The position numbers are program-made. A stretch of DNA of 63,998 nt, the filler included, from Sandaracinaceae bacterium (GTDB taxonomy: Bacteria > Myxococcota_A > Polyangia > Polyangiales > JADJQN01), in NCBI GenBank assembly GCA_947483975.1. It is 6 parts of 6 records of this genome, joined end to end, with 100 filler letters (N's around TTAATTAATTAA, not from the genome) between each part and the next. Parts side by side here need not be neighbours in the genome. Positions count along the whole stretch, not along the records: positions 22,917 to 34,259 come from CANKOL010000147.1; 5 more parts are not named here. One strand, given 5' to 3'. How positions within the stretch are numbered: the first letter of the stretch is position 1; each line of letters begins with the position of its first letter. Of this stretch, positions 23,672 to 26,600 are shown piece by piece.

Positions 23672-26600
23672 GACGAAGATCTCGATGTCGCCGAGGCGGC
23701 ACTTGCCCTGATTCATCAGGTCGAGCAGGCGGCCCGGCGTCGCGACGAGGATGTCGACGCCGCGCTTGAGCTCGTTGACCTGCGGGTTCTGCCCGACGCC
23801 GCCGAAGATCACCGTGTGCCAGAGGTCGAGCCCCTTGCCGTAGGTCGCGAAGCTGTCGCCGATCTGCGTCGCGAGCTCGCGCGTCGGCGTGAGGATCAGC
23901 GCGCGCAGCTTCGGCTCGTTGCCGGCTGTCGCGTCGAGGCGCTGCAGCATCGGCAGCGCGAAGGCGGCGGTCTTGCCGGTGCCGGTCTGCGCGCAACCGA
24001 GCAGGTCACGTCCGGCGAGCACCGGGGGGATGGCTTCACACTGAATGGGGGTCGGCTGCTCGTAGCCGGCGGCCTTGACGGCCGCGAGGATGGTGGGCTC
24101 GAGGCCTAGATTTTCGAACATAACGGGCGAATTCACGGCGCTTTCTCGCACGCCCTGGACGAAGTTCAAGGCGGCGCGCATGAGAGGGCCCGTGCGAAGA
24201 GGTTCCAACGACATGCCCCCCACAGCGCTTCTTCCCGACAAAGCAGCAGTTCGCGCTCACTTGCTCGAGGCGCTCGAGCGGGCCCTCGCCGCGATGACGC
24301 ACTCCGCCGAGCAGACCCGCTCGGGCGTCGTGCACGCCGACGCCCGCGCCGAGGGCGACAAGGATATGCGCTCGACCGAGCAGAGCTACCTCGCGCGCGG
24401 TCAGGCGATGCGCGCCGAGGACCTCGGCGAGCAGGCGCAGCGCTTCGCGACGACGCCCCTCGTGCGCTTCGCTGAGCACGACGCGATCGCCCCGGGCGCG
24501 CTCGTGCAGGCGCTCGTCGGCAGCGAGCGGCGCGTTTTCTACCTGGTGATGCAGGGCGGCGGCATCGAACTGACCGTCGGCGGCGTCAAGGTCACCGTCG
24601 TCACGCCCGCGTCCCCTGTGGGTCGCGCGCTGCTCGGGGCGCACGTCGGCGACGAGCTCGAGCTCCCGGGGCGAGGCGGCACGCGCGCGTGGGAGATCGA
24701 GGCGATCACCTGACGACCCACGGTTCCGCGTTGACACCTCCGAAAATCGGCGGCTATGCTCCGCCCGAACGCTGGCCGCGCGCTCGTGCGCGGGACGGGG
24801 AAGTTCCGGGCCGCACTGCCGTAAGAAGCGGCGGCGCAGGGAAGCGGCGCAGACAGCCTCGCAGAGGCTCTGAGCAGCAGCTTTCGATTTTAGGCACTCG
24901 ACAAGGAGAAAAGCGATGAAGGGCGAAGTTCGCGCACCGATGACCGTATGGCTGCTCTCGATGTTCACCTGCGGCCTGTACGGCCTGTACTTCACGTACA
25001 TCGCCTCGCAGGAGCTCAAGAACTACCTCGGCAAGGAAGACGTCAATCCCGTGATGATCACGGCGATCTCGTACTTCACCTGCATGTTCTGGGGCCCCTT
25101 CCAGATCGGCAAGCTGATCATGGAGGCGCAGCAGCGCGCCGGCGTCCCGAACCCCGCGGACAAGGGCGTCGTCGCTTGGGCGCTCAACACGTTCCTCTGC
25201 GGCTTCGGCAACAAGATGCTCCAGGAGGAGCTGAACAAGGTCTGGGAAGCGGGCGGCGGCGCCCCGGCGACGTTCTGATCGACGTCTGCTCCTAGCTCTG
25301 TTTCTCTGATGTCTTCGACGCCCGAGCCTGGTGCAACAACGCACGGCCCGGGCGTCGTCGTTCCGTCCCCTGAGATCGCTGCGCCCAGCCTGCCGACGAG
25401 CAACGAGCCTCCGGCCATGGTGCCGCCGCCCGTCGCACCGCCGACCCCCGCGACGCGCGCCGAGGACGCGCCGCTGCGCGTGAAGCTGAAGCGCCTCGGC
25501 GCCGCGCTCGTGCCGCTGCTCGCGCTCGCGGCTGGCCTCTGGTCGGGCCTCGCCTCGTGCCCGAACCGCGCGCTCACCGGCATCCCATGCCCCGGCTGCG
25601 GCCTCACCCGCGCGACGATGGCGCTGCTCCAGGGGCACCTCGCGGAGGCGCTGCACTGGCATCCGCTCGTCTTCCTGATGCTGCCGCTCGTCTGCTTCCT
25701 GATCCTCCGCTCGATGCTCGCGGGCGCAGGCCTGATCTCGTCCTCGGCCTGGCAGGTGCGCGTGCCGAACTGGGCGTTCGCCGCCTTCGCCGTGCTCGTG
25801 ATGGGCGTCTGGATCGCGCGGCTCGCGGGCTACCTCGGCGGGCCGAGCGACCCCGTCGACCTGCGCCTCTCGATCTTCGGCCGCGCGCTGACGTTCCTCG
25901 GCGTCCTCTGAGCGTGGCCTCAGAGCGGCAGTTGGCCGCGCTTCGGAGGTCGAGCGCGCCTGCGGCGCAGGCCAAAGACGTTCTTTGCGAACGCGAAACG
26001 GCTGCGGCGCAGGCCAAAAACGTTCTTTGCGAACGCGAAACGGCTGCGGCGCAGGCCAAAGACGTTCTTTGCGAACGCGAAACGGCTGCGGCGCAGGCCA
26101 AAAACGTTCTTTACGAACGCGAAACGGCTGCGGCGCAGGCCAAAAACGTTCTTTGCGAACGCGAAACGGCTGCGGCGCAGGCCAAAAACGTTCTTTACGA
26201 ACGCGAAACGGCTGCGGCGCAGGCCAAAAACGTTCTTTACGAACGCGAAACGGCTGCGGCGCAGCCGGGCGCGCCGGTGCAGCGCCTCAGCGCCTGGCTC
26301 AGAGCGGCAGGTTGCCGTGCTTCTTCGGCGGGTTCTGGTCCCGCTTGTCGCGCAGCATCTCGAGCGACTGGATCACGCGCGTGCGCGTCTGCCGCGGGTA
26401 GATGACCTCGTCGATGACGCCGAGCTCCGCCGCCTTGAACGGGTTGGCGAACTTGCGCCGGTACTCGTCGACGAACTTCGCCTTCGTCGCGACCTTGTCC
26501 TCGGCCGCGTCGATCTCCTTGCGATAGACGATGTTGACCGCGCCGTCGGGGCCCATCACGGCGATCTCCGCCGTCGGATACGCGAGGTTCATGTCGCCGC

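Follow-up and report, generated by a model that had tools for sequence, protein, structure and literature searches.

The window, the whole stretch of DNA that was analysed (63,998 nucleotides, filler included), comes from the genome of a Sandaracinaceae bacterium (GCA_947483975.1). On one of its contigs, C147 (CANKOL010000147.1), a tandem array lies between two convergent genes, together with non-repeat edges and two copies of a gene-end junction:

25309..25911, + strand: gene for a DUF2752 protein, the 5' flank, convergent with the next gene (ORF; Pfam PF10825, E 4.8e-20)
25901..25944, no strand: left-hand copy (T) of the duplicated junction between the gene ends, with the live stop of the DUF2752 gene and a decayed carboxyltransferase 3' end
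25945..25959, no strand: non-repeat left edge of the inserted segment (sequence)
25960..26264, no strand: tandem array of seven full 42-nt units and a closing 11-nt palindrome (TRF and sequence; unitigs and both junctions in three independent studies)
25960..25970, no strand: dyad P1, CTGCG-G-CGCAG, the first of 8 copies, one every 42 nt
25979..25993, no strand: dyad P2, CGTTC-N5-GAACG, the first of 7 copies, its centre exactly 21 nt (half a period) from that of P1
26265..26281, no strand: non-repeat right edge of the inserted segment (sequence)
26282..26323, no strand: T', the right copy of the junction, with a decayed DUF2752 gene end and the live carboxyltransferase 3' end
26299..28671, - strand: acyl-CoA carboxylase carboxyltransferase gene, the 3' flank (ORF; Pfam PF01039, E 1.3e-204, residues 302-788)

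The carboxyltransferase gene has 89 % DNA identity to the same-genus genome G001, and its listed start may be placed too far upstream.

TRF describes the array with a period of 42, 7.3 copies, 97 % matches and a score of 575, in agreement with a preliminary description of this DNA (42x7.3, 97 percent), and the array is real, non-coding and seen with its junctions in three studies. Each unit has two variable positions (G/A at 18 and G/A at 28), and P1 is both the first and the last element. The arms of P1 and P2 (5 and 5) form the two poles of a single symmetry axis, an arrangement matched by none of 300 shuffles. A CRISPR array was rejected, as the 31 nt between P1 copies are alike in all units (97 % identity) and are not unique spacers. 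The highest GC at any codon position is 0.74 in the array versus GC3 values of 0.93 and 0.85 in the flanking genes; this codon-position GC, along with the alignment of both gene ends with G001, rules out a coding repeat. The flank-to-array junctions are crossed from each side in contigs assembled from runs of three studies (X2, X3 and X5), which rules out an assembly artefact; joints skipping the array were absent from these contigs, and in X2 short array unitigs have a depth of 29-75 versus 13-18 for the flanks. A scan of the region returned no promoters and no terminators, and a weak hairpin followed by T5 on the minus strand fails the terminator rule of the tool. Rfam gave one sub-threshold chance match beside the array (Pseudomon-Rho, 21.7 bits versus a cut-off of 45), and viral contigs held no match to a tripled P1 pattern that could point to a phage source.

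T and T' share 35 matches over 44/42 nt (z 12.7, reached by 0 of 500 shuffles), and T lies where the carboxyltransferase gene ends in G001. At the orthologous site of G001 the flanks are contiguous and without an array, so that the stop codons of the two convergent genes are 9 nt apart there versus 386 nt here, and a base common to T and T' is missing from G001. The array is thus regarded as an insertion because it is bracketed by a diverged duplication of about 44 nt of the gene-end junction. It reached this site once the lineages of the two same-genus genomes had separated, and its entry duplicated about 44 bp of target, the ends of two convergent genes. This duplication, at 44 bp, is not short. 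An origin of the array from local sequence was rejected, the unit being unrelated to T (P 0.29).

The units of this array are related at the sequence level to those of an array placed directly upstream of a gene pair discussed below, that of gene X and an ATPase, at C123/C451 (E 1.5e-28 and 77 % identity against the C123 array; unit z 13.8), with the P1 dyad common to both. C123 and C451 had been listed as two loci, and they prove to be one locus split by assembly. Searching the genome with 40 doubled unit consensi (blastn-short) places each unit family in tandem arrays at 1-4 loci only. The proposal of several unrelated families was overstated, as families B, C and D are linked through the C168 unit (z 4.3-6.4), and C41 falls into family C. 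In the X-linked arrays described below, perfect dyad arms of at least 5 are present in 27 of 35 units versus 21 % of shuffles, and arms of at least 6 in 23 of 35 versus 6 %; the central loops are mostly 0-2 nt. Half-period symmetry, as seen in P1 and P2, was dropped as a rule of the class, being true of only about 7 of 25 units in this genome. Family D has a conserved tail of about 125 nt in three loci. An association with tRNA genes was rejected (one of 21 loci), and across 20 array loci Rfam found nothing except a tRNA. NCBIfam and PADLOC gave no match for 13 unknown proteins neighbouring arrays.

The preliminary description read these arrays as BIME/REP-like, which would make them a REP/BIME class mobilised by a RayT transposase. 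Such systems consist of many dispersed single or paired extragenic palindromes in alternating orientation, with a RayT gene flanked by the inverted motif. Their extragenic position, palindromes and clustering fit this reading, and a RayT gene does exist: a single PF01797 (Y1_Tnp, RayT) match on C47, flanked by inverted arrays of a 26-nt hairpin with periods of 70 and 40, so that its own REPs do form tandem arrays. That hairpin, GGTG + GGGCGGGC..GCCCGCCC, is however unrelated to families A-D, and the count of one comes from a genome 81 % complete, in which another RayT could be missing. No family has dispersed solo copies, and units run head-to-tail instead of alternating. With partly inter-related families, no solo copies and a sole RayT gene whose REP is a different one, the BIME/REP-like reading is not upheld, and we consider it extremely improbable.

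Genome-wide, TRF yielded 1852 non-overlapping loci, 471 of them with at least three copies, and 212 of these 471 are less than 30 % covered by crude GC3-based gene calls. Periods among the 212 include 41 (4 loci), 42 (12), 43 (3), 40 (1), 44 (2), 85 (2) and 84 (1), with none at 45-50; the arrays are concentrated at 41-43 nt, and also at 83-86 and 126. The initial account is thus borne out in that the arrays exist, lie between genes, bear palindromes, are homogenised at each locus and have periods concentrated at 41-43 nt; a genome-wide peak there holds as well, but quantization is not general, since 44 further non-coding arrays (period not divisible by 3, at least 2.5 copies, at most 35 % gene-call coverage) have periods of 19-38 with a cluster at 25, 26, 28 and 32. 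Arrays carrying the P1 dyad were also surveyed elsewhere. Named genomes gave 46 loci, where spacings other than multiples of 3 are 41 (5 loci), 43 (3) and 31 (1). Among 78 loci on metagenome contigs, 53 nt is commonest (15 loci, seemingly of one marine high-GC organism), with 41 at seven, 44 at two, and 20, 23, 28, 37, 40, 43 and 49 at one each. A universal 41-43 rule for P1-dyad arrays is ruled out by this survey, and 41-43 is an enrichment instead of a law because other spacings occur in both sets. Similar 41-43-bp arrays were noticed in Segatella, Kiritimatiellae, Streptomyces and a Pseudomonadota MAG, which hints that the spacing rule may reach beyond the order. Our literature searches retrieved no description of this repeat class, in keeping with the earlier statement that it is not described for myxobacteria, and its motif strings matched only unrelated primers.

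Gene X encodes an unannotated, all-helical protein of about 285 aa and is sometimes followed by a HerA/FtsK-like P-loop ATPase gene (directly downstream in 3 of 10 copies in this genome and in 5 of 12 neighbourhoods elsewhere). Searches of Pfam, NCBIfam and PADLOC with X gave no match, and no DNA-binding fold was recognisable. Its AF2 model consists of helical bundles (pLDDT 76) with no significant similarity to the PDB (Foldseek E at least 0.36; best VIA Z 8.5, under the noise of helical proteins). An Atlas search returned only unnamed clusters, mostly of Myxococcota. A sample of 401 genomes gave more than 250 matches to X, in 112 of them, and several complete genomes of the order have 1-5 copies of the cassette. 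Defence-like genes (AAA_15/AAA_21, SIR2_2, RES, Uma2) lie near X cassettes. Ten copies were detected in this genome, nine of them with upstream sequence, and in six of these nine (C123, C196, C131, C206, C304 and C51) the 600 nt upstream include an array of period 41-43 or 83-85, against a background of 34 of 3212 gene calls (1.06 %). For the remaining copies, C102 has a 42-nt array 0.55-1 kb upstream, C103 a 21-nt array and C474 none.

The linkage extends to other genomes. Of 16 X loci in nine relatives, six are preceded at 100-470 nt by an array with a 41-42-nt unit. A further 40 X loci, one per genome, hand-picked from the top of the match list and with at least 1300 nt of upstream sequence, include 30 with a base period of 41 (7), 42 (16), 43 (6) or 86 (1); of the other ten, one has a period of 22 and nine have no detected array. 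Combined, 36 of 56 X loci in 49 other genomes of the order carry an array, about 100-500 nt upstream, and 20 lack a 41-43 or 86 array at the TRF thresholds used (19 with none, one with a 22-nt array). X genes in this and the 49 other genomes thus share the same 41-43 period, or its double, upstream of them, with unrelated unit sequences and dyad-enriched units. This makes the class an element conserved ahead of gene X throughout the order, a tie that the preliminary description had missed, and the linkage explains the same period with different sequence better than genome-wide quantisation does.

About 12 of about 20 class arrays in this genome, that of the window included, have no nearby X gene, and some of the class arrays without X adjoin toxin-antitoxin operons. 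On C147 itself X is absent, tblastn giving only spurious matches to the translated array. The array of the window shares with the class a period within 41-43 and a perfect dyad per unit, and it does not lie 100-600 nt upstream of X. We call it an orphan because its contig has no X gene, though it is related to the X-linked C123 array.

Class arrays could instead be selfish or neutral minisatellites or MITE-like insertions, their linkage to X then reflecting co-mobility in accessory islets. The array of the window is indeed an insertion with target duplication; the C54 array lies within a 2.7-kb insert specific to this genome and bordered by a second, 26-nt copy of the pgi 3' end, and the C175 array lies inside 56-nt direct repeats that are 95 % identical and 1.76 kb apart. 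Compared with relatives, six other arrays (C8, C41, C276, C278, C208 and C168) are at synteny breaks, in poorly conserved stretches or beside a tRNA. Arrays are likewise few and weak in G001 (1.2 Mb), with no period of 41 or 43 and four weak or low-copy period-42 rows of 2.3-3.6 copies, and absent at periods 38-46 in G002 (0.8 Mb). A precedent is given by the MITE-borne minisatellites of Porphyromonas gingivalis (PMC4596501). Neutral drift, however, leaves unexplained both the dyad enrichment and the persistence of a 41-43 period upstream of X despite sequence replacement, at 36 of 56 loci from 49 genomes. In addition, no transposase or integrase is found among 68 proteins neighbouring arrays, and the flanks of family A differ between loci, with no conserved leader, tail or terminal inverted repeats. 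We therefore consider this explanation unlikely.

The position of the arrays, 100-500 nt upstream of X and at the same place in many genomes, is also what would be expected of an operator or activating array of variable copy number that serves the X promoter and is bound by a host regulator, not by X; a four-turn unit would hold helical phase at any copy number. The C159 and C123/C451 arrays do lie in divergent promoter regions, yet a sigma-54-like promoter occurs in only 1 of 35 array-to-X spacers, and the array of the window, placed where two convergent genes end, has nothing to regulate and no sigma-70-like site in or around it. Such a role is very unlikely in our estimate.

A third possibility is action at the RNA level: X and the array would share a transcript, and the array part would act as a repeated structured RNA whose units are processed or bound one by one, like the antitoxin RNA of type III toxin-antitoxin systems. 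In these systems the tandem-repeat RNA, with units of 34-45 nt, is encoded immediately ahead of the protein gene for which it is specific. The order of the elements here (repeats, 100-500 nt, protein gene), a unit length conserved across paralogues whose sequence is hypervariable, the presence of several cassettes per genome and their defence-like neighbours resemble this arrangement, and the minus strand of the window's array folds better than shuffles (z -5.0). The dyad centres, mostly 0-2 nt, nevertheless fit sites on duplex DNA better than RNA hairpins; X is helical, unlike ToxN-type toxins, and has no family match, Rfam gives no match, and the array of the window has no downstream gene in its convergent setting. 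An RNA-level element is thus quite unlikely.

We infer that the class arrays are most likely phased protein-binding arrays, and we give an even chance to the fuller hypothesis in which they serve as the conserved upstream cis-element of an X(-ATPase) cassette and the array of the window is an orphan of this class. Each unit would present, on double-stranded DNA, short dyad-symmetric sites about four helical turns apart, with a P1-P2 spacing in the array of the window corresponding to two turns. By analogy with sopC and SopB, the array may be a phased platform to which a dimeric sequence-specific protein binds, X itself being the simplest candidate, and dyad sequence and cognate protein would diverge together at a constant spacing. 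Against such a platform, arrays of period 41 or 43 would lose helical phase along a long run of units. Unequal recombination or slippage would alter copy number and homogenise units within a locus, and could also yield the doubled (83-86) and tripled (124-127) higher-order periods. An orphan array may then act in trans as an additional binding site, or be a relic.

A bolder proposal, which we hold only tentatively and regard as rather unlikely, is that the arrays, X and the HerA/FtsK-like ATPase make up an undescribed three-part system, widespread in the order, in which the phased 42-bp dyad array is the cis-site where X, as a cognate adaptor, loads or regulates a hexameric DNA motor in a new DNA-partition, DNA-translocation or defence module. 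The strict four-turn spacing would then be a mechanical requirement, and orphans would be extra sites, arising when an insertion copies a stretch of target about as long as one unit (44 bp).

Bacterial minisatellites are mostly regarded as typing markers or junk. A strict 41-43-bp unit length upstream of one gene family across dozens of genomes, with wholly replaced sequence and enrichment of short perfect dyads, points to a spacing-dependent nucleoprotein or RNA device with fast-evolving specificity. It also gives a concrete handle on the Myxococcota gene family X and its HerA-like partner, in the form of a gene, a presumed cis-site and natural orphan sites. For annotation, the class explains stop-free false ORFs over arrays and contig breaks in short-read MAGs.

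Among known systems, REP/BIME/REPIN elements share with the arrays their extragenic, palindromic and clustered nature, whereas the dispersal, alternating orientation and RayT linkage of the former are not found here. Mycobacterial MIRUs are tandem repeats with units of 40-100 bp, found at tens of intergenic loci in a genome, and are described as lying within operons and having small overlapping ORFs. The number of loci and the unit size are similar here, but a reading frame is incompatible with periods of 41 and 43, and the array of the window lies between convergent genes. Like type III toxin-antitoxin systems of the ToxI type, X cassettes have a short array directly upstream of the cognate gene, with unit length kept and sequence variable; unlike them, X does not resemble ToxN, AbiQ, CptN or TenpN in any library used, the dyads look like DNA sites, and orphan arrays exist. 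In P. gingivalis (PMC4596501), MITE464/PgRS holds 41-nt tandem direct repeats and BrickBuilt 23-nt ones, with about 10-20 copies per MITE type. Those minisatellites are likewise multi-locus, strictly intergenic and species-restricted, and one family has a 41-nt unit, but they are framed by a leader and a tail segment and by IS5-type terminal inverted repeats. Family A has no conserved features of this kind, and there are instead a 44-bp target duplication, at the array of the window, and a conserved gene-family link. The F-plasmid centromere sopC has 12 direct repeats of 43 bp, and SopB binds a 16-bp inverted repeat present in each of them (PMC3177203). ParA/ParB Pfam families were absent near the array of the window, near 20 arrays of this genome and near 12 cassettes elsewhere. 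The class differs from sopC in that its array is upstream and not downstream, the ATPase is HerA/FtsK-like, several cassettes and orphans occur per chromosome, and some units have a second dyad at half period. As in sopC, however, head-to-tail units of 41-43 bp each carry a short perfect dyad, here with a 0-2-nt centre, and the array adjoins a small operon that includes an NTPase.

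The window array occupies the interval between the ends of two genes; the window itself comprises five contigs (C145-C149) joined by runs of N, and window position 22917 corresponds to position 1 of C147.

end at 25911, + strand: DUF2752 gene, left flank of the array
25960-26264: window array, 42-nt unit x 7.3, 97 % matches (TRF)
end at 26299, - strand: carboxyltransferase gene, right flank of the array

Only two positions vary among its units. The 11-nt palindrome CTGCG-G-CGCAG is found at both the start and the end of the array, and a second dyad, CGTTC-N5-GAACG, is present in every unit with its centre exactly 21 nt from that of the first. 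The unit is open in all six frames, and the array is non-coding because GC stays below 0.75 at every codon phase, compared with GC3 values of 0.93 and 0.85 for the two genes beside it. The genome (524 contigs, 5.29 Mb, 71 % GC, N50 12.9 kb, 81 % complete) is a fragmented assembly, and copy numbers in such short-read MAGs are minima. Both junctions of the array could be recovered in Logan contigs from runs of three different lake-water studies, one reading from the left flank into 30-48 nt of array and the other from the array into the right flank; no contig of these studies joins the flanks across the array, and in one run (X2) short array unitigs have a depth of 29-75 against 13-18 in the flanks. 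As contigs cannot give copy number, the 7.3 copies are an assembly figure. Two further arrays were seen in the window, viz., one of perfect 34-nt units (x 3.3) close to where C149 begins (46148-46258), within a stop-free high-GC3 frame, and one of 96 nt x 2.5 at the end of C148 (45407-45647).

Comparison with relatives, which are samples of their groups, shows that the window array is an insertion. In G001, a genome of the same genus (20 contigs, 94 % complete), 9 nt separates the stop codons of the adjacent DUF2752 and carboxyltransferase genes, whereas the two genes are 386 nt apart here. Both gene ends fall within a 44-nt stretch at 25901-25944, of which a second, 42-nt copy is present at 26282-26323 (35 matches, z 12.7, 0/500 shuffles), each copy retaining one gene end intact while its other half has decayed. 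Since both copies share a base that is missing in G001, the duplication arose in the lineage of the genome under study. An origin from local sequence was rejected, as the unit is unlike the duplicated target (P 0.29). No member of family A, to which the window array belongs, was found in 40 relatives. Elsewhere, a 2.7-kb genome-specific insert, flanked by a diverged 26-nt copy of the 3' end of pgi, has the C54 array at one of its ends, and the C159 array lies in a ~600-nt extra stretch of a divergent promoter region (both relative to G001). The arrays on C8, C41, C276, C278, C208 and C168 coincide with breaks in synteny, lie where conservation is poor or directly follow a tRNA-Met gene, and that on C175 is enclosed by a pair of 56-nt direct repeats (95 % identity, 1.76 kb apart). 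The 42-nt array at C168:1341-1641 (L084) begins 72 nt past the tRNA-Met gene, exactly at the point where synteny with G001 is lost, and its site looks like an island-type junction. No arrays of period 41 or 43 were detected in 1.2 Mb of G001, where four period-42 rows of 2.3-3.6 copies occur, two of which read like coding repeats, and none of period 38-46 in 0.8 Mb of the relative G002.

TRF identified 1852 non-overlapping loci in the genome, 471 of them with at least 3 copies. Gene calls were crude (ORFs with a GC3 pattern) and cover 73 % of the genome, so that part of the coding sequence goes uncalled; gene-call coverage is below 30 % at 212 of the 471 loci. Among these, periods of 41, 42 and 43 occur 4, 12 and 3 times, 40 once, 44 twice and 84-85 three times, with none at 45-50. 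The 41-43 peak asserted in the preliminary description is real, but the general quantization of intergenic periods does not hold, given 44 other arrays (at least 2.5 copies, at most 35 % gene-call coverage) whose periods lie in the range 19-38, are not multiples of 3 and cluster at 25, 26, 28 and 32. Many of these carry a different, CGACCNAGGTTGAG-like motif at periods from 21 to 44. Identical 32-nt arrays at C112:3-124, close to the contig start, and C383:4847-4955 may be one locus split by assembly.

Circular comparison of unit consensi on both strands, against shuffles, separated four families.

Families of array units and the contigs that carry them
Family A: C147, C218, C123, C451, C302
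Family B: C54, C361, C175, and C199 as a 126-nt triple
Family C: C276, C42, C41
Family D: C208, C38, C304, C171

The description of the units as unrelated families is nevertheless overstated, because the C168 unit aligns over its whole length with B, matches D in a 17-of-20 segment and agrees with C over 15 nt (z 4.3-6.4). Contigs C123 (12774-12982) and C451 (3582-3878) both end in one array with an identical right flank and two unit subtypes, and represent a single locus broken by the assembler. No solo copies of any family were found elsewhere in the genome. The doubled (85) and tripled (126) periods are built of diverged subunits, and the dyad centre is sometimes flipped inside single arrays (TG versus CA in C276; G versus C in C199). 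Family-D arrays at C208:4279-4394, C38:10663-10784 and C304:3585-3716 (L086, L087 and L089, about 2480-2950) always have ~3 units followed by a conserved ~125-nt tail, after which CGACCNAGGTTGAGGTC-type repeats are present in C208 and C38; array and tail together resemble a discrete ~250-nt element.

An all-against-all comparison of array-neighbour proteins revealed a recurrent uncharacterized gene, X, often followed by a HerA-like ATPase gene. There are 10 copies in the genome, with upstream sequence present for 9.

Gene X copies and their upstream arrays
C123, C196, C131, C206, C304, C51: array of period 41-43 or 83-85 nt, with 15-260 nt between its end and the likely start
C102: array of period 42 nt located 0.55-1 kb upstream; degenerate periodic dyads reach the start
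C103: 21-nt array upstream
C474: no upstream array
X with ATPase: C123, C206, C131
X alone: C196, C304, C102, C103, C51, C398, C474 (all loci: L079, L288-L297)

Against a background of 34 upstream arrays among 3212 gene calls (1.06 %), at least 7 of 10 copies with an array has a binomial P of ~2e-12, and 6 of 9 would be similarly extreme. The sequence family of the upstream array differs from one X paralogue to another; the array of the C123 X-ATPase pair is of family A, like the window array (77 % identity over 200 nt, E 1.5e-28, unit z 13.8). Toxin-antitoxin genes (hicA/hicB-like, phd-vapC, PIN, mazF, mazE) were also noted 0.2-1.5 kb from 5 of 20 arrays (L074 on C218, L085 on C302, L077 on C330, L080 on C175 and L081 on C276), as was an Arr rifampin ADP-ribosyltransferase gene near the C276 array.

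Using a profile built from eight X proteins of this genome, X could be detected in 10 of 41 relatives (E <=1e-8) and in 112 out of 401 genomes sampled from the order (E <=1e-30; a tally that includes one unpublished genome, on which none of the findings depends). Arrays of period 41-42 end 100-470 nt upstream of X at 6 of 16 loci in relatives (G001, G024 x3, G034, G018); of the rest, one has a 26-nt array and nine have none detected, and several of the loci without period 41-42 match X weakly or are interrupted by stop codons. In a further set of 40 loci, one per genome and hand-picked from the best matches (leaving out the unpublished genome, one tandem pair of X genes and matches with <1300 nt of contig upstream), 30 have base periods of 41 (n=7), 42 (n=16), 43 (n=6) or 86 (n=1), mostly 95-480 nt upstream of X; one has period 22 and nine have none detected, TRF thresholds determining which loci score as none. 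Doubled or tripled higher-order rows are frequent among the 40 loci, and no two unit sequences are the same. Perfect dyads with arms of at least 5 occur in 27 of 35 units with a 40-44 row (21 % of shuffles), at least 6 in 23 (6 %) and at least 7 in 12 (1.7 %), with centres mostly of 0-2 nt. The array class keeps its 41-43-bp unit length over wide divergence while being hypervariable in sequence, its units hold short perfect dyads, and it is fixed in position upstream of X; orphan arrays also exist, arriving by insertion.

X matches no family in Pfam, NCBIfam or PADLOC, and in the Atlas it falls among unnamed clusters, mostly from Myxococcota; these clusters and the preliminary description are the basis for assigning the genome to that phylum. 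An AF2 model from an eight-row alignment (mean pLDDT 75.9, pTM 0.53) is all-helical with a disordered tail, which ends in a PGxxPF conserved in that alignment; a YLRW...APSLYAGRG motif is also conserved. The model has no meaningful match in the PDB. The protein encoded downstream (455-499 aa) matches HerA_C and DUF87, with weaker hits to TrwB, FtsK, mad8 and defence-type HerA models. Its gene comes after X in 3 of the 10 copies here and, in other genomes, in 5 of the 12 neighbourhoods inspected. These 12 neighbourhoods contain defence-like genes (AAA_15/AAA_21, SIR2_2, RES, Uma2) and no phage, conjugation or integrase genes.

Most likely, each unit would be bound as duplex DNA by a dimeric cassette-encoded protein, the sites being spaced ~four helical turns apart so that neighbours would share one face. 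Dyad and protein would co-diverge, and unequal exchange or slippage would alter copy number and homogenize the units. Against this binding model, X lacks a recognizable DNA-binding fold, most arrays of the genome do not adjoin X, and at the TRF thresholds used a 41-43 array is absent from more than a third of X loci. Alternatively, the arrays could be an RNA element in the style of type III toxin-antitoxin systems or selfish MITE-like minisatellites, or might be bound by a host regulator.

Beyond the order, a scan of named genomes for three CTGCG-G-CGCAG dyads at 27-57 spacing gave 46 loci, nine of them with a spacing not divisible by 3.

Dyad spacings in named genomes
Spacing 41: three Segatella oulorum loci and two Kiritimatiellae contigs, the latter looking like one locus
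Spacing 43: Streptomyces werraensis, S. calvus, Pseudomonadota MAG
Spacing 31: Binatia MAG

A further seven 41-nt loci, of which at least some are Segatella-like, came from metagenome contigs, as did isolated loci of other periods; by these tallies, therefore, 41-43 is favoured and not universal. A 53-nt (and 159-nt) tandem family, built around the same dyad (as CTGCGSCGCAG) within a longer imperfect palindrome, was seen at >=15 metagenome loci (L170, L178, L187, L189, L190, L195, L205, L208, L216, L218, L235, L236, L238, L243, L246) and seemingly derives from one marine high-GC organism, judging by contig names and GC.

No description of the array class was found in the non-subscription journals searched. 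Its proposed likeness to REP/BIME elements is not borne out: the sole Y1_Tnp gene of the genome (C47, about 13994-14442, within locus L169 at C47:13668-14860) is bracketed by inverted arrays in which a 26-nt GC hairpin is repeated in tandem (GGTG + GGGCGGGC...GCCCGCCC; period ~70 on one side, 40 on the other), which is a classical REP-RayT arrangement whose hairpin is unrelated to families A-D. A Segatella-like multi-locus 41-nt (and 82-83-nt) family, with a GC dyad followed by an A6...T8 dyad (L133, L142 and L148 in Segatella oulorum; metagenome L172, L182, L192, L198, L199, L202, L215, L224, L233), may be related to the 41-nt tandem repeats that MITE464/PgRS of P. gingivalis is reported to carry (PMC4596501). 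The closest architecture to that of the array class in print is sopC of plasmid F (PMC3177203).
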